A stretch of 64,000 nucleotides of DNA from an uncultured Pseudomonadota bacterium (GTDB lineage: Bacteria > Babelota > Babeliae > Babelales > CAIQNR01). Below, in pieces: positions 39,447 through 55,466 of this stretch. A program made the position numbers and the translations under genes. The notes beneath the pieces were generated by a model that did not search any database, had not been told where the DNA came from, and worked only from the letters and a program-made list of their open reading frames with translations. The DNA lies in the NCBI GenBank assembly GCA_964604015.1, contig CAZRXF010000006.1:16487-80486 (forward strand), in the 5' to 3' direction. Position 1 is the stretch's first letter. Each line of letters starts with the position of its first letter.

Positions 39447-42044
39447 ATGCGTATGAAATCGATGGAAATCCGCAAGAAGTTTTTTGATTTTTTTACCAAA
39501 CATGGTCACAAGCAGATCGACAGCTCGTCTTTGATCCCCGCCCAAGACCCTACCCTCCTGTTTACCAACGCGGGTATGAATCAGTTTAAAGACCTATTTC
39601 TTGGTAACGAAAAGCAAAGCTACAAAACAGCGGTCACCATCCAAAAATGCGTACGCGCCGGTGGAAAACATAACGACCTTGATAACGTCGGTTTTACCAA
39701 ACGCCATCTGACTTTCTTTGAAATGATGGGCAATTTCTCCTTCGGCGATTACTTCAAGAAAGAAGCTATTTTTTACGCCTGGACATTTTTGACTAAAGAA
39801 TTGGGACTCAATCCTCAAGACATGTACGTCTCAGTCTATGAAAAAGACGATGAGGCATTTGAAATTTGGAAAGACCTTGGTGTCTCTCCTGATCGCATTA
39901 TGCGCTTTGGAAAAAAAGACAATTTCTGGCAAATGGGGAATTCAGGTCCCTGCGGCCCTTGTACCGAAATCTATGTCGACTTACGCCCAGCAGCAGAGCG
40001 CTCAAAAACTCCAAGCTACGAAGATTTTGATCAAGGCAGACTCCTTGAAGTGTGGAACAATGTATTCATGCAATTCGATCTGCAAGAGGACGGTACTTTG
40101 AACCCGCTCAAACAAACGGGCGTTGATACCGGTATGGGACTTGAACGTATCACCTGCATTTTGCAAGGAGTCGATACGGTCTACCAAACAGATCTGTTCT
40201 TGCCGTTGATTGCAGAAATTGAACGACTTACCGGCGTAAACTACGCACAACAAGATGAAAAAACTAAAGCAGCATTTCATGTTTTAGCGGACCACATTCG
40301 TTCTTCATCGTTGATTATCGCAGATGGTGGTTCTCCTTCAAATGAAGGCCGCGGCTATGTGCTTCGAAAAATCATCCGCCGAGCAGCACTTTTTGCTCAA
40401 AAACTGACTTCTAAAAATATCTTTCCTGACCTTGCAAGAGCATTCATCAAACAAATGTCTCCTGTCTATCCAGAGCTAAAAACCAACGAGACGATGATTG
40501 TGAATTTGCTCCATAACGAAATCGAACAGTTTGCACAAAATCTGATTCGGGGACAAAACATCCTTGGTGAGTTTTTTGAAGAACAAAAGGAATCGAAACA
40601 TATCTCAGGAGAACAAGCATTCAAATTGTACGACACGTATGGGTTCCCAATCGAGGTGACTATCCTTGCCGCACAAGAACGTGGCTATACGGTCGATTCT
40701 GTTGGTTTTGAAGAAGCGATGGAAAAACAGCGCCAACTTTCTGGCAAAAAGATGAAAACGGTTCTCAAAGAAATCGAACTTCCTGAATCGATCAAAACAA
40801 AATTCGTGGGATATCAACAAACCAACTGTCACTCAAAAATTATCGGGTTGCTTCACAACGACACATTAGTTAACGAAGTTCCAGCACAAACAAGCGTCTG
40901 GGTTATCACCCAAGAGTGTCCCTTCTTTGTGACCACCGGTGGCCAAGTTGATGACCAGGGATGGATCAATGTTGATGGCAAAAAAGCCAAGCTTGAAGGA
41001 CTTCGTAAGATCAGTGGGGCTATCGCTTTTGAGATAACAGCGCCAACCACACTCAAGGTCGGCATGGCAATCGAGCAACAGGTAGAACTTTCAAGCCGCA
41101 TCATGACGATGAATAACCACACCGCCACCCACTTACTGCAAGCAGCATTAATTCAGCTGCTTGGCAAACAAGTAAAACAAGCAGGGTCGGTCGTACATCC
41201 TGACTATTTACGCTTTGATTTCACGTTCCACCGTAACCTGACAGAAGAAGAAATTACCCACGTTGAAAATACCGTGAACGACAAGATCCGTGAAAACATT
41301 GGGGTTGAGGTTTTTGAAACCACCTACAAAGATGCACTTGACCGTGGGGTCATCGCCATTTTTGGGGAAAAATATAACCCTGAAAAAGTACGTGTTGTTG
41401 ATGTTCCTGGGTTTTCTGCAGAACTGTGCGGCGGTACGCACGTTCCTTCAACGGGTGTCATCGGTCTTTTTAAGATCACAGAAGTGGGTGCACTTTCTGC
41501 TGGTGTGCGCCGCATCTTTGCCGTTACCGGACCACGAGGGGTTGAACTTCTGCAAAAAAACTTCAACACAGTCAAACATTTAAGCCAAGAATTTAAAGTA
41601 AAACCTGAAGAAGTTTTGAATGCGGTGGAAAAACAACGGTGCTCACTCCAAGCATGTCAGTTACACATCCGTAACCTCAAAAAAGAAGTCGTAAAATCGC
41701 ATCTGCCTGTGTGGACTGCAAAAGTTGAAACCGTTAAGCATGTACCGTTTTTATTCCTTCATCTTGAAAATCAATCAATCGACGACTTGCGCGAAATCGG
41801 CACACAACTCCAAACACACAAGCAAGGCTTTTACTTCCTTGTTTCAAGTGAAGAAGGCACCTCAAATTTCTACGCAACCGTAGCACCAAGCTATGAAGCT
41901 CACGTGAATACCAAAGATTTTGGCGTGTGGCTTAAGACGGTTGCCGGACTTACTGGCGGTGGCAAACCAGGCACCCTGCAAGGGGGCGGGCCGCGTGTTG
42001 GCAAACAGCTTGAGCAGCAAATTAAGGATTATTTGTTGCAGTAA
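39447..42044 (+). CDS. alaS: alanine--tRNA ligase
   Basis: FTNAGMNQFK, QKCVRAGGKHNDLDNVG, FFEMMGNFSFGDYFK, GPCGPCTEIY, VDTGMGLERI, editing-domain HTATHLL/CGGTHV and a C-terminal GGGKPG. The start may be the ATG at 39453. Confidence 0.96.
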   Translation: MRMKSMEIRKKFFDFFTKHGHKQIDSSSLIPAQDPTLLFTNAGMNQFKDLFLGNEKQSYKTAVTIQKCVRAGGKHNDLDNVGFTKRHLTFFEMMGNFSFGDYFKKEAIFYAWTFLTKELGLNPQDMYVSVYEKDDEAFEIWKDLGVSPDRIMRFGKKDNFWQMGNSGPCGPCTEIYVDLRPAAERSKTPSYEDFDQGRLLEVWNNVFMQFDLQEDGTLNPLKQTGVDTGMGLERITCILQGVDTVYQTDLFLPLIAEIERLTGVNYAQQDEKTKAAFHVLADHIRSSSLIIADGGSPSNEGRGYVLRKIIRRAALFAQKLTSKNIFPDLARAFIKQMSPVYPELKTNETMIVNLLHNEIEQFAQNLIRGQNILGEFFEEQKESKHISGEQAFKLYDTYGFPIEVTILAAQERGYTVDSVGFEEAMEKQRQLSGKKMKTVLKEIELPESIKTKFVGYQQTNCHSKIIGLLHNDTLVNEVPAQTSVWVITQECPFFVTTGGQVDDQGWINVDGKKAKLEGLRKISGAIAFEITAPTTLKVGMAIEQQVELSSRIMTMNNHTATHLLQAALIQLLGKQVKQAGSVVHPDYLRFDFTFHRNLTEEEITHVENTVNDKIRENIGVEVFETTYKDALDRGVIAIFGEKYNPEKVRVVDVPGFSAELCGGTHVPSTGVIGLFKITEVGALSAGVRRIFAVTGPRGVELLQKNFNTVKHLSQEFKVKPEEVLNAVEKQRCSLQACQLHIRNLKKEVVKSHLPVWTAKVETVKHVPFLFLHLENQSIDDLREIGTQLQTHKQGFYFLVSSEEGTSNFYATVAPSYEAHVNTKDFGVWLKTVAGLTGGGKPGTLQGGGPRVGKQLEQQIKDYLLQ

Positions 42045-47494: not shown

Positions 47495-47888
47495 TGGTGG
47501 AGGCGATGGGAATCGAACCCATGTCCGCACTACCGTTGTCAAAAGACGCTACATGCTTAGCCCTTACGAATACTCATTCATCTTAGTAAAGGCGAAAAAA
47601 TGAATGAGCCAGGTTGGTATACACACTTTTTACGAACCTATTGAACCTACAAAGTGAGTTCTATCTTGTATAATACGTGATAGAACAGCTGATAGACACG
47701 CTATTCCATCAAGACGTCACTGTTTAGGCAGCAAGTACGGCATGACTGCCGTAAGAGTAGTCCATAACAGGGACATGCTTACCAGATTGGTCTGCATTTA
47801 TTGGTTGACCATTTTTTTTACGAGTTCCCGGACAAAACTCGGCATGCTTCCTTCAACGCCAATAACACGTCGAAACCAGTACGCCCCC
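47495..47888 (-). ncRNA. ssrA: tmRNA (SsrA)
   Basis: On the minus strand the 5' end is GGGGGCGUACUGGUUUCGACG and the 3' end is GCGGACAUGGGUUCGAUUCCCAUCGCCUCCACCA. These form a tRNA-Ala-like acceptor stem with a G3:U70 pair. An internal tag frame ends ...GSHAVLAA-UAA (47724..47810). It lies immediately downstream of smpB. Confidence 0.95.
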
Positions 47889-47973: not shown

Positions 47974-48435
47974 CTACTCATCGTAGCCTTTAAGCTCGCG
48001 CTCTGTATCGCGTTTGATATCACGTTCACGCAAGAGGTTCTTTTTACCTGCCGCGTTGCGGTGCTTACATAAGCCTAAATGTACCTTAACCAAGCCTTTT
48101 TCATTGAAGTAGAGCTTGAGCGGCACCAAGGTAATCCCTTTGCAAGACACATCGCCTACTAAGCGCATCAGCTCACGCCTTTTAAGAAGTAGTTTGCGAG
48201 TACGCCTACTTGCTTCTTCTTCTTTCTTGTACGCCTTTTCATAAGGAGAAATATGGCAATTTAAAAGAAACAACTCCCCGCGATTGAACGTAGCAAACGA
48301 CCCTGTCAGGTTTGCATTACCAGCTCGCAGCGATTTTACCTCATCACCGGTAAGCACAATACCCGCTTCAAGTGAATCAATCACGTGATAGTCAAAGGAT
48401 GCTTTTTTGTTCTGAGTAATAATTTTCATCGTCAT
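47974..48435 (-). CDS. smpB: SsrA-binding protein
   Basis: 153-aa ORF with NKKASFDYHV, GIVLTGDEVKSLR, LLLKRREL and a basic C-terminal tail. Confidence 0.95.
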   Translation of the reverse strand: MTMKIITQNKKASFDYHVIDSLEAGIVLTGDEVKSLRAGNANLTGSFATFNRGELFLLNCHISPYEKAYKKEEEASRRTRKLLLKRRELMRLVGDVSCKGITLVPLKLYFNEKGLVKVHLGLCKHRNAAGKKNLLRERDIKRDTERELKGYDE

Positions 48436-49026: not shown

Positions 49027-50049
49027 ATGGAAAACTACACGCTTCTTGCACTTGAAACTTCTTGCGACGAAGTTGCCGCCGCGGTCTACAACACCGAAAA
49101 AAAGCTTCTTTCTCATCGCCTTTACTCTCAAACTGAGCACCATAGGCGGTTTGGCGGTGTCGTTCCCGAAATAGCTTCCCGCACCCATATCGTCAAAATT
49201 AATGGAATCGTTGAAGAGGCACTTACTGCCTCTGGGTGCACGCTTGATGATATTGATGTCGTCGCCGTTACGAGCAAGCCAGGTCTTTTAGGATCACTTC
49301 TTATCGGTATTAGCTTTGCCAAAGCAATTGCAGGATCACGTAATAAAAAATTGGTAGCAGTTGATCACCTTGAGGGACATGCGTTTTCAGCATGTTTAGA
49401 AAATGATATCCCCTTTCCTTTTTTATGTATGACTGCATCAGGTGGACACACCAGCTTATACCGTGTTACCGATTACGGTGTTTTTGAAACATTGGGAACT
49501 ACGTCTGATGACGCAGCAGGTGAAGCATTTGATAAAGTTGCCAAGATGCTCAAGCTTGGATACCCGGGTGGACCTATCATTGAAAAACTTGCAGGGGAAG
49601 TTGGATTTCAAGACTTCTTTGACTATCCACGCAACAAGATGAACGATCTCACGTTTAGTTTTTCTGGTCTTAAGACGGCAGTACTCTACGATCTGGTTAA
49701 AAAAGGTGCCTACAGCATGGAAGAAAAGACCATTCTGACCGATGATCTGGAACTTAAAAAGCACGTTGCTAGTTCTTTCCAGGTGTGTGTCGCTGACATT
49801 TTTGTGAACAAAATTACCAAAGCACTGCAAGAAGATAGAAGCTACAAAGCGATCGTATTTGTAGGCGGTGTTGCCTGCAACAAATACATCCGTCAACAAA
49901 TCCAAACGCGTGTTGCCGACAGATTTGGATTACCCTTCTTTTATCCCTCCCCTCAATTTTGCACTGACAATGCTGCCATGATCGCTTTCGTCGGTCATTA
50001 CAAAGCACAGCGCGGTGAGTTTAGTTCTTTAGATTTTGAAGCGTACTAA
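49027..50049 (+). CDS. tsaD: tRNA N6-adenosine threonylcarbamoyltransferase
   Basis: 340-aa ORF with LALETSCDE, GVVPEIASRTH, the metal site VDHLEGH and VGGVACN. Confidence 0.93.
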   Translation: MENYTLLALETSCDEVAAAVYNTEKKLLSHRLYSQTEHHRRFGGVVPEIASRTHIVKINGIVEEALTASGCTLDDIDVVAVTSKPGLLGSLLIGISFAKAIAGSRNKKLVAVDHLEGHAFSACLENDIPFPFLCMTASGGHTSLYRVTDYGVFETLGTTSDDAAGEAFDKVAKMLKLGYPGGPIIEKLAGEVGFQDFFDYPRNKMNDLTFSFSGLKTAVLYDLVKKGAYSMEEKTILTDDLELKKHVASSFQVCVADIFVNKITKALQEDRSYKAIVFVGGVACNKYIRQQIQTRVADRFGLPFFYPSPQFCTDNAAMIAFVGHYKAQRGEFSSLDFEAY

Positions 50050-50163
50050 CAACAGATACATATTTTTAAACTAGCACGCCCCCTCTAAACACATTTGTCA
50101 AACAAGGCAGTTTTTTTTAGTGTTATTCATAAAGTTTCACCCCTTCTAAAAAAGGAGATCTGT

Positions 50164-51363
50164 ATGAAAAAACTGACGCTGTTGGCACTTCTTGCCTGCA
50201 TGCCTCTAATGGCACCGACAGGTAAGCGGTATATCCCAACTTTGGACGAAATCAGGAAGGCATTCCTAGAATATTTCATGAAGGAAGGGTTTGTTCGCGT
50301 AGAACCAAAATCAGTTGTTACGCCAGATGGTAAAATAATTGGATCTGCTGCCACCGCATTCAAAGATTTCATCATGCATCCAAAGGGCAACCCTTCCGAT
50401 ATTATCACTATCCAATACTGCATTCGGGCTTATGGCCATTTTGATGACAAACCCACTGTTCGCGCATCAGAACACCATGTTACCTATTTTCCTTCCCTTG
50501 CCTTCTTTTCCCAAAACAAAGGTAGTTATCGAAGAAATATTTACCGCATGGTGCTCTTTTTAATTGAACACTTGGGCCTTGATAGAGACCGTTTCTACGT
50601 GACTATGCACAAAGATGATAGAGAAGCAGCATTGGCCATACAAGGACTCATGCAAGAAGGAAAACTTCTACAAGGGCATTCTTTTGCTTTCGACGAAGAA
50701 AATATGTGGAAAGAAGAAGAACATGGAGGATTACGAGGTTTTTCTACAGAATTTTTTATCGACCAACGACCAGAAAAAATGCGTCAAAAAAGACCTATCA
50801 AAAAAGATTTCATGAACGGTAATCTCCTTGAATTAGCTAGTATTGTGAGCTACAAGGAAATGGTCTCCCCAGCTCCTTATGGAACGCCACCCCCTGCTCC
50901 AATGCCTGTTCCTTGCTGCATGAACGGCAAGAGCCTCAGCCCCTATCGCATACCTTCCGCTTTGAACCCTGTCTCTTCAACCACTCCGCCTCCTTCTCTC
51001 TATGACCTTCCAGAAATTAAACCGATCATGCACTCTGTAGAAAAAGCAACAAGCAAAAACTACAACACAGCTGATAAAGAAACCCGTGCAGCCATGAGGG
51101 TTATCACCGATCACATGCGTACTGCAGTGGTGCTCATGGCCAATGGAGTCAAAACTTCTGATAAAACAGAAGCAGGTACATGTTTGCGTGGATTATTAGA
51201 AGAAGCTCAAAACGCTGCAAAAACAATCGCCCCTAAGAAAGCCATACTCCCACATGTAACACGTGCTGTTATCAAAGTGATGAAACCAACACATCCTGAA
51301 ATTGGAAAGAAAAGCAGCATGATCATCAAAGCAGTGCAGAAGGAAACCAACCACAAAAAATAG
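50164..51363 (+). CDS. signal-peptide-bearing, degenerate paralogue of the AlaRS aminoacylation domain (pseudo-synthetase)
   Basis: The ATG at 50164 lies 6 nt after AAGGAG. Signal/lipobox-like MKKLTLLALLAC. It is collinear with the window's own AlaS N-terminal ~440 aa (details in the finding at 50164..51363), but the WN..F and DTGMGLER regions are lost. Confidence 0.75.
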   Translation: MKKLTLLALLACMPLMAPTGKRYIPTLDEIRKAFLEYFMKEGFVRVEPKSVVTPDGKIIGSAATAFKDFIMHPKGNPSDIITIQYCIRAYGHFDDKPTVRASEHHVTYFPSLAFFSQNKGSYRRNIYRMVLFLIEHLGLDRDRFYVTMHKDDREAALAIQGLMQEGKLLQGHSFAFDEENMWKEEEHGGLRGFSTEFFIDQRPEKMRQKRPIKKDFMNGNLLELASIVSYKEMVSPAPYGTPPPAPMPVPCCMNGKSLSPYRIPSALNPVSSTTPPPSLYDLPEIKPIMHSVEKATSKNYNTADKETRAAMRVITDHMRTAVVLMANGVKTSDKTEAGTCLRGLLEEAQNAAKTIAPKKAILPHVTRAVIKVMKPTHPEIGKKSSMIIKAVQKETNHKK

Positions 51364-51370
51364 CTTCGGC

Positions 51371-51399
51371 AAAAAAGAAGGGGTGCGTAACACCCCTTC
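51371..51399 (-). terminator. intrinsic terminator (minus strand), hairpin possibly shared with the AlaRS-like gene
   Basis: The hairpin gaaggggtg-cgtaa/ttacg-caccccttc is followed on the minus strand by tttttt. Confidence 0.6.
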
Positions 51400-51425
51400 A
51401 AAACTGCGTCAACGTCTTAACGACA

Positions 51426-51659
51426 CTAACTTCTCCATAACGAAAATTTCTTTGTAAGTGCCGCAAGCTGCTCGCCCTCAGCGAATGTAACCACCCCCCA
51501 ATACTCTAACTCTGCTTCTGGGGTTTGTTTTGTTCGCTCATGCTGTTCTGTATACGTCCCTTCTACCATCGTATGGGTAAAATCAGTAAAGGGAATCCCC
51601 ACATCTATAAGCGCCTGACGAAATGCACGTACTTTGTTTGAATTATCGGCCTGAAGCAC
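51426..51659 (-). CDS. small hypothetical protein (uncertain)
   Basis: 77-aa ORF with a GTG start and no well-placed SD, but a terminator follows it. The sequence is not low-complexity. Confidence 0.3.
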   Translation of the reverse strand: MLQADNSNKVRAFRQALIDVGIPFTDFTHTMVEGTYTEQHERTKQTPEAELEYWGVVTFAEGEQLAALTKKFSLWRS

Positions 51660-51743
51660 AATCCAAAAACTTCTTGCTCCCTAATTTCAGCAATTCCTAC
51701 ACTAAACAAAGTTTTCAAACATCGAACCCTTGGAGAGAAACCT

Positions 51744-52442
51744 ATGGAACAAAAAGCTTTCATGCTCATTATGTTTATGGTGAATTCTTCATTTGTCCAA
51801 ACAGCAGAGCAAAATCCCCTTCTTGTACGACCAATAGGATTACCCGTCATAGACGCAATAACGCGTCAGGATCATGAGGGTCTTCAGAGAATTTTGGATG
51901 CTGGACACAACCCAAACGAATCTTATGATGATAACGCTTATTCGTCACAGACCTTACACCGAAAGTCATGCGGCCCTGTAACACCACTCATACACGCAGC
52001 CCGTCTTTCTGATAGTTCAATAGCAATCATAGAACTTCTTCTGGCAAGGGGTGCCCACGCAAATGCAGAACATATTCATGGAATACCTACCCCTCATGCA
52101 ACACGAAAAGATCTGAGACATCATTGTTTTGTTATGACCCCTATCCTTGCTGCTATTTTAAGTCTCAACGCAGGAGCTGTTATAGCAATTGCACAGCACC
52201 GCTCTTTTGTAAGGCCAGAAAACCTCGATGCCAATTTTGAAAAAGCTGCTCTTTTTTTGCTTTCAGGTGATACCCAATCCAAAGCACGGGATCTTTTGGC
52301 CTACACTAAAACATGGGGAGTCCAGTCGATTGAGTCCCTTACACAAGCTCTTGAACTCCTTTCTCTAAGCAAACATACAGATTTTTCTAGCGTACTTATG
52401 GGCAATATCACTGACCGGCTCACAAAGCTCACCTTTAAATAG
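51744..52442 (+). CDS. secreted ankyrin-repeat protein
   Basis: 232-aa ORF with GGAGAG 6 nt upstream, a hydrophobic N-terminus, and ankyrin-type repeats (DAITRQDHEGLQRILDAGHNPNE; TPLIHAARLSDSSIAIIELLLARGAHANA; TPILAAILSLNAGAVIAIAQH). Confidence 0.8.
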   Translation: MEQKAFMLIMFMVNSSFVQTAEQNPLLVRPIGLPVIDAITRQDHEGLQRILDAGHNPNESYDDNAYSSQTLHRKSCGPVTPLIHAARLSDSSIAIIELLLARGAHANAEHIHGIPTPHATRKDLRHHCFVMTPILAAILSLNAGAVIAIAQHRSFVRPENLDANFEKAALFLLSGDTQSKARDLLAYTKTWGVQSIESLTQALELLSLSKHTDFSSVLMGNITDRLTKLTFK

Positions 52443-52453
52443 TAATAAAAAAA

Positions 52454-52480
52454 GGCGCTGAGAAAGCGCCCTTTTCTTTT
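52454..52480 (+). terminator. intrinsic terminator after the ankyrin gene
   Basis: The hairpin ggcgct-gagaa-agcgcc is followed by cttttctttt. Confidence 0.7.
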
Positions 52481-52503
52481 AAACATAGATTTCAAGCCAC
52501 ATA

Positions 52504-53001
52504 TTACGCCGCATTACCAGTTGCTACGGAACTCGTTTTTGCAGGCGCATACTTCTGAATAGCTTCTTGAAGATGTCTCTTGCGTTCTTCTTCACTCACT
52601 GGTTTTTGATAGGGAAGTGTAAGAGTAGCCAATGCCATCCAATTTTTCTTTTTGCTTACTTCCAAGGCATGTTTAAGACTTTTTTCGTAGGCCTTATCGA
52701 CCGGTTGCACAGGACGAATGGTTAAGACAAATTGCTCTCCATCCTGCTGCACAAAATGCTTTGCAAGCAATGCTCTTCTCATGTCGTAAGCAGCCCAATT
52801 TGGCTTGAATGGCTTCTTTTTAAACTTAAAAAATTTTGGATTACTCAAAACCTTAGCTGTACCTGCCTTATGATCAGCGACCAATTTTGAGAAAAAACCA
52901 TGCACACATGGCAAGTTGGCAATAATGCCAGCCGGCTTTATATGAGCTGAAAAAAACAGCATAAACGGGAAAATTTTTATTAATTTTTTTGAGGACATCA
53001 T
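52504..53001 (-). CDS. hypothetical secreted basic protein
   Basis: 165 aa from the ATG at 53001 (GGAGAAG upstream) with signal peptide MMSSKKLIKIFPFMLFFSAHI. No motif could be assigned. Confidence 0.5.
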   Translation of the reverse strand: MMSSKKLIKIFPFMLFFSAHIKPAGIIANLPCVHGFFSKLVADHKAGTAKVLSNPKFFKFKKKPFKPNWAAYDMRRALLAKHFVQQDGEQFVLTIRPVQPVDKAYEKSLKHALEVSKKKNWMALATLTLPYQKPVSEEERKRHLQEAIQKYAPAKTSSVATGNAA

Positions 53002-53112
53002 AAGCGCTTCTCCATTTTTAAAGCCCCACTTAATCGGAGCTTTCACCTATTATTTAGGATAGCTCTGCCTCATAAAAGCGCAACAGGTCGGCGTTTACCT
53101 CTATTTTTAAGC

Positions 53113-53799
53113 TTATTTAGCAATAAACCCAATAAGTCGAATGGGAGACTCAGAGCCACCCTTAAGCTTTAAAGGAAATATCCCGACAAACGCACCTACA
53201 GGGGGCAATTGATCGCTATGAGCAATGTTTTCGACAAGATACTTACCAGCACCAAGCACTGCTTCATGCACACGAAATTCATCAATAGGACGGTCAGCCG
53301 AGAACGTATCCACACCTAAACCCACGATGCCGCGCGCAAGCAAAAATCGAGCAGCTTCAACAGTTATTGAAGGGAATTGATAGTTGTTACGGTAGTGCTC
53401 AGGATCAGACCAATACCTATCCCAGCCTGTCCGAATAATAACCAACGATCCTTCAGGAATAACGCCATGCACATTTTCAAAAGCCTCTACGGCAACAACT
53501 GAAACACGGTACCGTTCATCAGCTTGTGCCGATACATCAATCACCACGCAGGGAACAATTAACGACTCAAGAGGAAGCATATCGATGGTTGCTCCACCGG
53601 GAGAGCAATGAACAGGAGCATCCATATGAGTACCCATACCCGCTGTTGTAGCAATTCTGTGTGCTCGGAACTTTACATCAGTAGAACAATCACCATAATC
53701 GATCGCCATAGGCATTCTAAAAGAACATGACTCATTCCATCCTGGTGCGTTTTCATCAAGCGTATGAGTAAGATCGATAAGAGTGTAGGGAAAACTCAT
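53113..53799 (-). CDS. cyclase-family protein (kynurenine formamidase-like)
   Basis: 228-aa ORF with DLTH and the metal motif GMGTHMDAPVHC (HxGTHxDxPxH type). Confidence 0.8.
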   Translation of the reverse strand: MSFPYTLIDLTHTLDENAPGWNESCSFRMPMAIDYGDCSTDVKFRAHRIATTAGMGTHMDAPVHCSPGGATIDMLPLESLIVPCVVIDVSAQADERYRVSVVAVEAFENVHGVIPEGSLVIIRTGWDRYWSDPEHYRNNYQFPSITVEAARFLLARGIVGLGVDTFSADRPIDEFRVHEAVLGAGKYLVENIAHSDQLPPVGAFVGIFPLKLKGGSESPIRLIGFIAK

Positions 53800-53813
53800 C
53801 TTCTCTACTTATT

Positions 53814-55466
53814 CTATGAGTTTGACGAACCGCTTCCACCACCAACAGGAACATTCAATACCGTTGTTCCATTCTTTTTGGCGTTCATTGATTCGAAGAA
53901 TTCCTCGTTGGTTTTGAACTTCTTCATCTTATCGATCAAGAACTCCATACCTTCAATAACGTTCATGTTAGAAAGGAACTTCTGCAAGACCCATGTACGT
54001 TTAAGTTCGGCTTCAGGAAGCAGGAGATCTTCACGACGCGTACCAGAAACAAGCAAATCGTAAGCCGGATAGACACGACGATTTGCCAATTTACGGCTCA
54101 TGTGCATTTCCATGTTACCGGTACCTTTAAACTCTTCGAAAATAACTTCGTCCATACGAGAGCCGGTTTCGATAAGTGCGGTAGCGATGATCGTTAAAGA
54201 ACCGCCCTCTTCAGTATTACGTGCCGCACCAAAGAAACGTTTTGGACGTTGTAATGCATTGGCATCAATACCACCAGTTAACACCTTACCAGACGCTGGA
54301 GCAGTAGTGTTGTAGGCACGAGCAAGACGAGTAATCGAATCAAGGAGAATGACTACATCCTTGCGAGATTCAACCAGGCGTTTTGCTTTTTCAAGAACAA
54401 CTTCTGCAACTTGCACATGTCGTTCTGCTGATTCATCAAAGGTTGAGCTGATCACTTCAGCATGCGCACCTTTGACACAACGCTTCATGTCAGCAACTTC
54501 TTCTGGCCGTTCATCAACAAGAAGAACAATAATGAAAACTTCAGGGTGGTTGCCAATCAAACTTTGTGCAATTTCTTTAAGAAGAACCGTTTTACCAACA
54601 CGTGGCGGAGCAACAATCAACCCGCGCTGTCCCTTACCAACTGGCGTAAAGATGTCCATGATACGGGTAGATACAAATGTTGGATCATATTCGAGTTTGA
54701 ATTTTTTGTCCGGATGCATCGGAGAAAGTCGATCAAAGAAGGGACGTTCATTGAGCTTTACCGGATCTTCAAAGTTAACCTTTGTTACCTGATTCAGGGC
54801 AAAGTACTTTTCACCATCTTTTGGCTTACGAATAGTACCTACAACGTTATCGCCAGTACGTAATCCAAGACGACGAATTTGTGAAGGAGAAACATAAATA
54901 TCGTCAGGGCTTGAAACGTAATCAAACTTACTTGAACGCAAGAATCCAAAGCCATCAGGCAGTCTTTCAAGCACCCCTTCAACGTCAATTTCACGATCTG
55001 GGTTTTGCTGAACCTCAAGAATTTTGGCGATGAGATCTTTGTGAGACATCAAGCTTGCGCCAATGATGCCAAGGCGACGAGCATGTACATTAAGCTCTTG
55101 CATAGAAAGCTCAACCATTTGCTCTTCTGTAAGATTCTTTAATGGAGGTAAATCAACCTGTTTGTGTTGTGGTGGATTCTCCCCACCACCACGATTTTCA
55201 CGGCGTTGATTTTGTTGAGCATGACTCGACGTACTATGAGGGCGTCTTTGATGTTGGCGATCCTGACGAGAATCATCCTGACGGTTATCCCCATCACGAG
55301 AACCACCTTGGCCCTGATGGGACGGATTACCGCCCGTGCCACGCTTATTATTACTACGACTGTAGCTTCGTTTTTTTGCTTTTTGTTGCTGTTGCTGCTG
55401 TGACTGCGAAGACGCAGATCCATCAGAAGAAACAGGAGTTGGTAATATTGGTGTATCATCTTGCAT
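53814..55466 (-). CDS. rho: transcription termination factor Rho with a ~105-aa low-complexity N-terminal extension
   Basis: 550-aa ORF with a Rho_N-like [15 protein letters not shown], the RNA-binding FGFLR, Walker [11 protein letters not shown], and the C-terminal [14 protein letters not shown]. It is preceded by a Q/R/G/S/N/D-rich segment that includes QQQQQQ. Confidence 0.93.

Follow-up and report, generated by a model that had tools for sequence, protein, structure and literature searches.

What is a bacterium doing with a second, shortened relative of its alanyl-tRNA synthetase (AlaRS)? The question is raised by a gene at 50164..51363 (+) of a 64,000-nt stretch of contig CAZRXF010000006.1 (here the window, on whose scale all coordinates are given), which encodes a protein of 399 aa referred to below as the paralogue. 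A bona fide alaS gene of the parent type (39447..42044, +; 865 aa) lies in the same window. A first-pass annotation, made by eye, had described the paralogue as an exported and catalytically degenerate copy of the AlaRS catalytic domain. Our analysis points, with modest confidence, to an exported, lineage-specific nucleotide-binding protein made from the first ~360 AlaRS residues and put to a new role.

The gene and its relationship to AlaRS

The mechanical open reading frame (ORF) call opens at TTG 50095 and ends at 51363 (+), and an in-frame ATG at 50164 gives the 399-aa protein (MKKLTLLALLACMPLMAPTGKRYIP...) plus stop. The ATG start was accepted because a Shine-Dalgarno (SD) sequence AAGGAG, read from the sequence at 50152..50157 (+), lies 6 nt ahead of it and all orthologues of the family begin with MKK or MKR; the longer TTG-start ORF was dropped on the same grounds. 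The ORF is real, and the strong SD of the first-pass annotation was borne out. Three relatives of the protein (P0002, P0003 and P0151, described below) were available for comparison.

Pfam PF01411 (tRNA-synt_2c) matches aa 29-396 of the paralogue to positions 1-356 of the 552-position profile (E = 1.2e-37, 130.1 bits against a cut-off of 30.3), BLASTP aligns 377 aa with the window AlaS at 28% identity (E = 3e-39), and phmmer against the PDB sequences returned AlaRS catalytic fragments only. The paralogue is a true homologue of the N-terminal catalytic region of AlaRS, far beyond chance, and the worry that a similarity seen by eye might be spurious did not hold up. BLASTP and a multiple sequence alignment (MSA) reproduced all the segments that had been paired with AlaS by eye; the two proteins are collinear as proposed, but over a shorter extent, since collinearity stops at AlaS residue ~358-362 (E. 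coli ~367) and not at ~440. The minimal E. coli fragment for adenylate synthesis defined by deletion work in the Schimmel laboratory is reportedly 368N, and the C-terminal end of the paralogue presumably coincides with the end of that fragment.

The editing and C-Ala domains are absent, as the first-pass annotation had it: PF01411 is the sole Pfam match, and in the Pfam scan neither PF07973 (tRNA_SAD), which the true AlaS matches, nor a C-Ala domain was found in the paralogue. The AlaXM model likewise hits only the true AlaS of the window. With the NCBIfam equivalog model TIGR00344 (alaS, cut-off 457 bits) the paralogue scores 110.5 bits, P0002 199.7 and P0151 161.2, against 853 for the AlaS of the window, which also matches PF01411 at E = 4e-193.

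Residues were surveyed after the four paralogues had been aligned with 81 AlaRSs, E. coli K-12 AlaS serving as the numbering reference; D235, R69 and K73 follow the literature style without the initiator Met, and N303 and D400 are Met-inclusive. This alignment, the derived conservation table, the predicted beta-strands and structural matches (see below) delimit a class II catalytic core at aa 27-234 (50242..50865, +). Of the 65 positions in the span of the paralogue that reach 90% or more conservation in AlaRS, the window protein retains 32. All four members keep F15, F46, Q65, C67, R69, D76, V80, H86, F90, D135, N168, W170, G179, E183, D187, E209, V214, R242 and R288, while all four have lost H20, P30, D33, G81, M92, G94, N95, K103, W111, C178, W211, F215, D235, T236, E241, N302 (Asn303 in the literature), Y307, V308 and R314, as well as K73. 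Several AlaRS-invariant residues were replaced identically throughout the family (N95 by F, F215 by S, D33 by G; W111 became H or V), and such family-specific replacements are among the 56 invariant columns of the family MSA.

In the crystal structure of AlaRS with ATP and alanine, the adenine lies between the motif-2 Phe and the motif-3 Arg, and the alpha-phosphate on the motif-2 Arg; the methyl group of alanine touches Val204 (E. coli V214) and Asp225 (E. coli D235) holds the alpha-amino group, the contacts being numbered Arg68, Phe89, Arg232, Val204 and Asp225 in that work (PMC12143591). Motif 2 of the paralogue (QYCIRA...HHVTYF, aa 84-109) contains R88 and F109 as the equivalents of R69 and F90, and W182, E196, E223, S226 and V228 correspond to W170, E183, E209, N212 and V214. 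Despite 60-65% divergence, none of the ATP-contact residues R88, F109, R262, E196 and E223 varies among the four members. The paralogues keep the adenine, alpha-phosphate and alanine-methyl contact residues of the structure, with only Asp225/235 gone and now Met or Phe, and the nucleotide half of the active site is the part preserved most faithfully.

These results change the picture of the substrate-binding segments, which the first-pass annotation had called not conserved. The substitution of WNNVFMQF in AlaS by ASIVSYKE in the paralogue was reproduced in the MSA, and Asp235 and other residues are indeed lost, but with 32 of the 65 near-invariant positions kept, the ATP contacts included, the general statement went too far; "catalytically degenerate" is overstated, as R69, F90, R242, E183 and E209 are invariant in the whole family. 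The VDTGMGLERI segment had been thought to be replaced by a Pro-rich insert. Its Asp is lost, but the Pro-rich loop (aa 235-250, SPAPYGTPPPAPMPVP; 50866..50913, +; pLDDT 55-66) aligns with the variable loop preceding motif 3, in whose place it stands, and it is followed by a degenerate motif 3 (aa 251-263, CCMNGKSLSPYRI; 50914..50952, +). Here M253 replaces Asp235, G255 corresponds to Gly237, two residues are inserted, and the invariant R262, which begins a helix at 262-267 in the predicted model, corresponds to Arg242. The Asp235 position is F, F and S-F in the three relatives. In no family member does a D or E stand among the 16 residues before the motif-3 Arg, so the loss of Asp235 does not depend on the alignment register. 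A second Pro/Ser/Thr-rich insertion (aa 268-278, NPVSSTTPPPS; 50965..50997, +), six residues longer than in the orthologues and AlaRS, is found in the window member only.

Residues of AlaRS that deal with tRNA were also affected. Lys73, which touches the 3' end of the tRNA and is required in the transfer step though not in activation (PMC6209979), is H, P, T or A across the family, and Asn303, which reads G3:U70 together with Asp400 (PMC8583063), is D. The paralogue ends at E. coli residue ~367, ahead of the LYDTYGFP block that holds Asp400, and this block is consequently absent. With Asp235, Lys73 and Asn303 substituted, the Asp400 block, editing domain and C-Ala missing, and 110 bits against an equivalog cut-off of 457, the paralogue is not an alanyl-tRNA synthetase.

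The C-terminal part is a helical domain (aa 285-399; 51016..51360, +) that the MSA matches to the beginning of the tRNA-recognition domain of AlaRS. No other part of the family is as well conserved, with 40-50% identity against 34-43% in the catalytic core and 35 of 115 positions invariant, and its net charge is +8 to +12, where AlaRSs average +2.3. A change from RRIIRRA to RGLLEEA was at first taken as loss of a basic tRNA-binding surface, and this was ruled out by the domain-wide charge count, in which the paralogues are more basic than AlaRSs.

An AlphaFold2 (AF2) model, whose input alignment combined the four paralogues with AlaRS N-termini, reached a mean predicted local distance difference test score (pLDDT) of 85.5 and a predicted template modelling score (pTM) of 0.86. 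The pLDDT is below 50 at aa 1-16, with the first helix starting at residue 27, 55-78 at aa 230-280, and 94-98 in the helical domain. Foldseek against the PDB gave the AlaRS catalytic fragments 1riq, 3htz, 3hxu and 9jc7 as top matches (E = 1e-22 to 1e-25, TM 0.77-0.78), followed by GlyRS-alpha, ThrRS and HisRS at E ~1e-5 or weaker. The structural check proposed in the first-pass annotation therefore came out in favour of AlaRS, as fold compatibility and not as an independent test, because the sequences behind the model are mostly AlaRSs.

Family, origin and genomic setting

Searched exhaustively with HMMER, 1.84 billion cluster representatives yielded only two proteins above the AlaRS background: P0002 (392 aa, 40% identical, aligned end to end at 262 bits, where the best ordinary AlaRS reached 106 bits) and P0003 (329 aa, 33% identical, on a contig of JGI 3300050046). 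A profile search added P0151 (399 aa, 36% identical), giving a family of four members in ~15 billion proteins, all from close relatives and located just downstream of tsaD. A word-indexed protein search with the single paralogue sequence returned only the query, a scan of 185,579 species-representative genomes with the single protein gave no family members, and when the family alignment was used on those genomes and on JGI metagenome contigs, only ordinary AlaRSs at no more than 28% identity came up. The identical protein is encoded in an unchanged setting on 11 metagenome contigs drawn from several samples; in the eight contigs compared the gene is identical and the flanks differ by 0-4 bases, the copies being clonal. 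The P0003 orthologue is split into overlapping PF01411 ORFs of 329 and 92 aa by a frameshift, either a sequencing error or a real inactivation, while P0151, closely related to it, has an intact frame.

The AlaS of the window shares 83% identity with that of one uncultured metagenome-assembled genome (MAG), 64-67% with those of three others and 51-58% with those of Babeliales/Dependentiae (TM6) MAGs, which places the source of the window in the Dependentiae. When 75 AlaS N-termini were aligned with three paralogues, the loop between the C(T/S)EI and E-x-W-N strands was found to have the form D-x-RP-xxx-R-xx-xP-xx-xDF-xxG only in the paralogues, the window AlaS and the AlaS of four other genomes (L009, L010, L011 and L012). 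The same loop is a four-cysteine GC...C.P.C.CD in other Babeliales AlaS and IWGGPPGSPEEDGD in Proteobacteria. The best non-self tblastn matches of the paralogue are the AlaS of the same sub-clade (132-137 bits), with the rest at 105 bits or less. The clade-specific loop and these best matches show that the paralogue arose by duplication of this sub-clade's own alaS, and not by transfer or an ancient split. As a feature of the true enzymes, the AlaS of this sub-clade carries at ~aa 178-200 a Cys-free RP..ER..P..DF segment instead of the four-cysteine loop.

Comparison of the window with L089 and L170, the loci of P0002 and P0151, showed that the paralogue has changed much faster than its surroundings: it is 36-40% identical, against 84-86% for TsaD, 81% for SmpB, 84% for DUF2062 and 90-95% for Rho. 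Its Nei-Gojobori nonsynonymous rate (dN) of 0.58-0.66 is 5-9 times that of the neighbours (0.05-0.14). The proportion of nonsynonymous differences (pN, 0.40-0.44) is lower than that of synonymous ones (pS, 0.68-0.76). Three of the four members, P0003 being the exception, keep intact frames of 392-399 aa, whereas in neutral simulations run to 40% amino acid identity 0 of 300 frames stayed open, with a mean of 12.9 stops. The open frames, a pN below pS and the same replacements in all members indicate that the paralogue evolves fast yet under purifying selection, and is not a decaying copy.

The paralogue follows tsaD (49027..50049, +; PF00814), its conserved upstream neighbour, on the same strand after a 114-bp spacer. 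The two genes are probably co-transcribed, because the sole promoter-like site lies upstream of tsaD and no terminator was found between them. The paralogue is just downstream of tsaD also in L089, in L170 and in the P0003 contig, and the first-pass annotation had suggested examining this linkage. Most of the tsaD loci retrieved to map the distribution came from unrelated phyla; in the two from distant Dependentiae (L090 and L091, TsaD 53-55% identical) the paralogue is missing and rho adjoins tsaD in a different orientation. The tsaD locus of the L010 genome (TsaD 69%) also lacks it and has an unrelated convergent ORF right after tsaD, so the distribution of the paralogue is narrower than the sub-clade defined by the alaS loop.

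The content of the interval between tsaD and rho differs in every relative. In the window (50050-53813) the paralogue shares it with a DUF2000 remnant, two ORFans bearing signal-like N-termini and a cyclase. In L089 rho comes immediately after the paralogue, L170 carries additional ORFs of 157 and 206 aa, and the P0003 contig has a cyclase and a nucleotidyltransferase pair (NTP_transf_2/NTase_sub_bind). Given this variation, and rho abutting tsaD in distant genomes, a functional link with tsaD was set aside, and the association is best read as positional.

Several other features were observed in this part of the window. A GC-rich palindromic hairpin with a 10-bp stem (51377..51399), 14 nt past the stop of the paralogue and between it and the convergent DUF2000 remnant, has a T-run on the - strand only and looks like a terminator for the - strand gene. 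The remnant (51426-51659, -; 77 aa) aligns only with the C-terminal end of DUF2000 (positions 58-133 of the 133-position profile, E = 1.8e-13) and is probably what is left of a gene. The ORFs at 51744-52442 (+) and 52504-53001 (-) are lineage-specific ORFans with signal-peptide-like N-termini, the first having a sub-threshold ankyrin-repeat match (E = 0.024); ankyrin proteins bearing signals are typical putative effectors of Dependentiae (PMC6561590). The 550-aa Rho (53814-55466, -) has a low-complexity N-terminal extension of ~100-120 aa, rich in Gln, Arg, Gly and Ser, before its RNA-binding domain. On the other side of tsaD, the tmRNA gene (47495-47888, -; Rfam RF00023, 148.7 bits) adjoins smpB (47974-48435, -), which encodes its protein partner. 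The GC skew is negative over the entire 64 kb, indicating that the window lies on one replichore.

A predicted export signal and the proposed role

All four members carry an N-terminal extension of ~25-35 residues that AlaRS lacks. A cleavable Sec signal is expected to have K or R in its n-region, 7-15 hydrophobic residues in its h-region and small residues at -1 and -3 of its c-region. In the window protein it covers aa 1-26 (50164..50241, +), delimited by the MSA, hydrophobicity, pLDDT and the orthologues, with a signal-like part at ~aa 1-20: MKK is followed by a hydrophobic stretch from L4 to P18 that includes LLAC at 9-12, with a 10-residue hydropathy maximum of 2.63 and a +2 n-region. Across the family, two to three basic residues within the first five are followed by an uncharged stretch of 14-23 residues with Kyte-Doolittle maxima of 2.3-2.7, and A-x-A-type sites are found in the three relatives (LDA|K, LEA|K and APA|Q). 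The sequence of the extension is only ~30% identical across the family while the signal-like feature is kept, which argues that the extension is functional. Signal-likeness was scored with a simple hydropathy and charge heuristic, with Skp as positive control and cytosolic enzymes as negatives; it was positive for all four family members and flagged 9 of the 37 larger ORFs of the window, with the periplasmic chaperone Skp/OmpH among them and no cytosolic enzyme.

The signal peptide noted in the first-pass annotation stands as a signal-peptide-like N-terminus, and its lipobox stands only in part. LLAC is present, with Cys12 after only 7-8 hydrophobic residues, but a canonical lipobox ([LVI]-[ASTVI]-[GAS]-C) is not conserved in the orthologues: LVLC and FLVC lack G, A or S at position -1, and one orthologue has no Cys. 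Lipoprotein status is doubtful on this conservation, though the window protein may still be one.

Dependentiae are a phylum of obligate intracellular parasites of protists. We infer that the paralogue is exported by Sec, which fits the phylum since the cultured Chromulinavorax destructans is a diderm that uses Sec and has signal peptides in 44% of its coding sequences and in 78% of its ankyrin proteins; it also sheds outer-membrane vesicles and imports host ATP (PMC6561590).

The early history of the paralogue can be read from the data: alaS was copied within the lineage, and the copy dropped the end of the tRNA-recognition domain together with the editing domain and C-Ala, and gained an N-terminal extension of ~25 aa with the n-h-c layout of a Sec signal peptide. 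In the continuation that we somewhat favour, Sec would carry the protein into the periplasm, from which it might be released, for instance in outer-membrane vesicles, a route proposed for the many effectors with signal peptides in cultured Dependentiae. Its retained class II pocket would bind ATP or another adenine nucleotide outside the cytoplasm, where ATP could be available because an energy parasite imports it from its host, and it may adenylate a small ligand without an alpha-amino group. The basic helical domain would dock onto a polyanionic partner. The very high rate of change and the position in a variable island would fit a role in host interaction or in the envelope rather than housekeeping. 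The first-pass suggestion of a ligand- or nucleotide-binding scaffold or a host-directed factor may accordingly be kept as the best available reading.

Several points weigh against an exported nucleotide-binding protein. Met92, Gly94, Asn95, Trp211, Phe215, Thr236, Gly239 and Glu241 of motif 2 and the pocket are changed, and motif 3 has the two-residue insertion in a segment of low model confidence, so the pocket may be closed or remodelled. ATP binding is deduced from residue conservation, and the fold match of the AF2 model is partly built in by its AlaRS-dominated MSA. The frameshift in P0003 suggests that the gene may be dispensable in some lineages, and its confinement to a genus-level group means that the function cannot be essential. 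Synonymous divergence (dS) is saturated in all genes, and dN/dS can therefore only be bounded, at ~0.3 or less. A clean AxA site is missing from the predicted c-region of the window protein (PLMAPTG|KR), and its hydrophobic stretch is followed by basic residues, making cleavage and even topology uncertain.

A more specific form of this proposal, which we regard as a long shot, is that of a secreted ATP-dependent adenylate-forming effector, which would use host ATP to activate a small carboxylate without an alpha-amino group and transfer the group to an acceptor in the host or envelope, docked through the basic helical domain. Such an activation would be possible because the Asp235 position is now hydrophobic while the Val214/Trp170 pocket for small side chains and all ATP contacts are kept. 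AlaRS itself is reported to activate lactate and to transfer lactyl groups, a chemistry that the proposed one would resemble (PMC12143591).

The strongest competitor, a real contender that we nevertheless rate as unlikely, is an exported pure scaffold, that is, a pseudoenzyme, adhesin or decoy in which the AlaRS fold has no ligand chemistry and the basic helical domain and variable Pro-rich loops bind a component of the envelope or host. It would account for the many changed residues lining the pocket, for a motif 3 interrupted by an insertion and flanked by Pro-rich, low-confidence loops, for the helical domain and not the core being the best-conserved part (40-50% against 34-43%) and unusually basic, and for a very high dN, which is typical of surface and host-interaction proteins. 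What it can hardly explain is that the survivors in all four members, at 60-65% divergence, are exactly the ATP contacts R69, F90, E183, E209 and R242; structural roles alone rarely preserve both class II arginines plus both acidic residues.

It is improbable, in our judgement, that the protein stays inside the cell, with the N-terminus an uncleaved inner-membrane anchor or an irrelevant segment and the rest a cytoplasmic AlaRS-related regulator or an adenylate-forming enzyme like AsnA, PoxA or HisZ. Basic residues do follow the hydrophobic stretch in all members (KR, KK, K..KK), the hydrophobic run before Cys12 is short in the window protein, the characterised aaRS-like paralogues are all cytosolic (PMC9437257) and ATP is normally cytoplasmic. 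However, the positive n-region and the uncharged run of 14-23 residues, with helix-breaking Pro, Gly or Ala close to its end, have the length of a signal peptide and not of a transmembrane segment, A-x-A-type sites occur in three orthologues, and with a positive N-flank even an uncleaved segment would place the domain outside the cytoplasm. The phylum also routinely puts Sec signals on non-envelope domains (PMC6561590).

Slightly less probable still is a decaying, non-functional alaS duplicate with an accidental signal peptide. Its extreme divergence relative to the neighbours, the frameshifted P0003 orthologue, the variable-island site beside the 77-aa DUF2000 remnant and the narrow distribution could all be expected of such a gene, but they would have to be reconciled with three independent ORFs of 392-399 aa where none of the 300 simulated frames stayed open (mean 12.9 stops), a pN well below pS, 56 invariant columns including family-specific replacements, a strong SD, and a signal-like extension kept in all four members despite sequence drift. 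A second functional AlaRS subunit or split AlaRS, to which the PF01411 domain and a C-terminal end near that of 368N might point, is highly improbable and effectively already refuted by the substituted Asp235, Lys73 and Asn303, the absent Asp400 block, the 110 bits against the 457-bit cut-off, the complete alaS in the same window and the export-type signal.

Comparison with known systems

The closest structural counterparts of the paralogue are the AlaRS catalytic fragments (E. coli AlaRS441/461N and A. aeolicus AlaRS453; PDB 3HXU, 1RIQ and 9JC7), which have the same fold (TM 0.77-0.78) and with which it is collinear from residue 5 to ~367. Both share the motif-2 Arg and Phe, the motif-3 Arg, Glu183, Glu209, Trp170, Val214, Asn168, Asp76, His86, Gln65 and Cys67. 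Unlike AlaRS, at 28% identity, the paralogue has an N-terminal export-type signal, Met or Phe for Asp235, His, Pro, Thr or Ala for Lys73, Asp for Asn303 and Pro-rich loop insertions around motif 3, and it is without the Mid2/Asp400 block.

A different resemblance is to the signal-bearing putative effectors of Dependentiae, such as the ankyrin proteins and hydrolases of Chromulinavorax destructans, in which a Sec-type signal is likewise placed on a normally cytosolic domain (PMC6561590). Like them, the paralogue is lineage-specific, evolves rapidly and is found among signal-bearing ORFans, including the neighbour with a weak ankyrin match. It differs in being a derivative of a translation enzyme and not a eukaryote-like repeat protein or hydrolase; secretion beyond the periplasm is putative for all of them.

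AlaX/AlaXp is also a stand-alone protein derived from AlaRS, but it represents the editing half of the enzyme (tRNA_SAD, with an HxxxH/CxxxH zinc site), whereas the paralogue represents the aminoacylation half and has no tRNA_SAD match. The free-standing aaRS-like proteins with a class II core include AsnA from AspRS, PoxA/EpmA from LysRS, HisZ from HisRS and the SerRS-like amino acid:carrier-protein ligases (PMC9437257). The paralogue belongs to none of these families, nor to AlaX. The known aaRS-like families are widespread, conserved and, as far as characterised, cytosolic (PMC9437257), while the paralogue derives from AlaRS, carries an export-type signal, is limited to the genus level and evolves very fast. 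In agreement with the first-pass annotation, whose author knew of no comparable protein, a 2022 review of synthetase duplications contains no derivative of the AlaRS catalytic core and none with an export signal (PMC9437257); the novelty would lie in the combination of an unusual parent domain and an unusual predicted location.

The weight of the case is limited by a very small distribution, with four sequences from one genus-level clade of uncultured bacteria, and by the chance that the protein is a dispensable accessory. Within these bounds it represents a very recent birth, datable because the loop shared with the parent gene marks the origin, in which domains were lost, a signal was gained, contacts to tRNA and the amino group disappeared and the ATP contacts were selectively kept, and the setting is an obligate intracellular energy parasite with host ATP outside the bacterial cytoplasm. 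Should the protein bind or use ATP extracellularly, the range of synthetase-derived proteins would extend to host interaction, and as a secreted adenylate-forming effector it would be the first bacterial enzyme of synthetase origin to be exported. Duplicated synthetase cores have recurrently yielded new ATP-dependent enzymes (AsnA, PoxA, HisZ and the carrier-protein ligases), and the paralogue followed the same route as these: a synthetase was duplicated, the tRNA-handling modules were lost and the ATP-binding core was kept and turned to another use. Judging from its retained core, the paralogue may work as these proteins do, by ATP-dependent ligand binding or activation.

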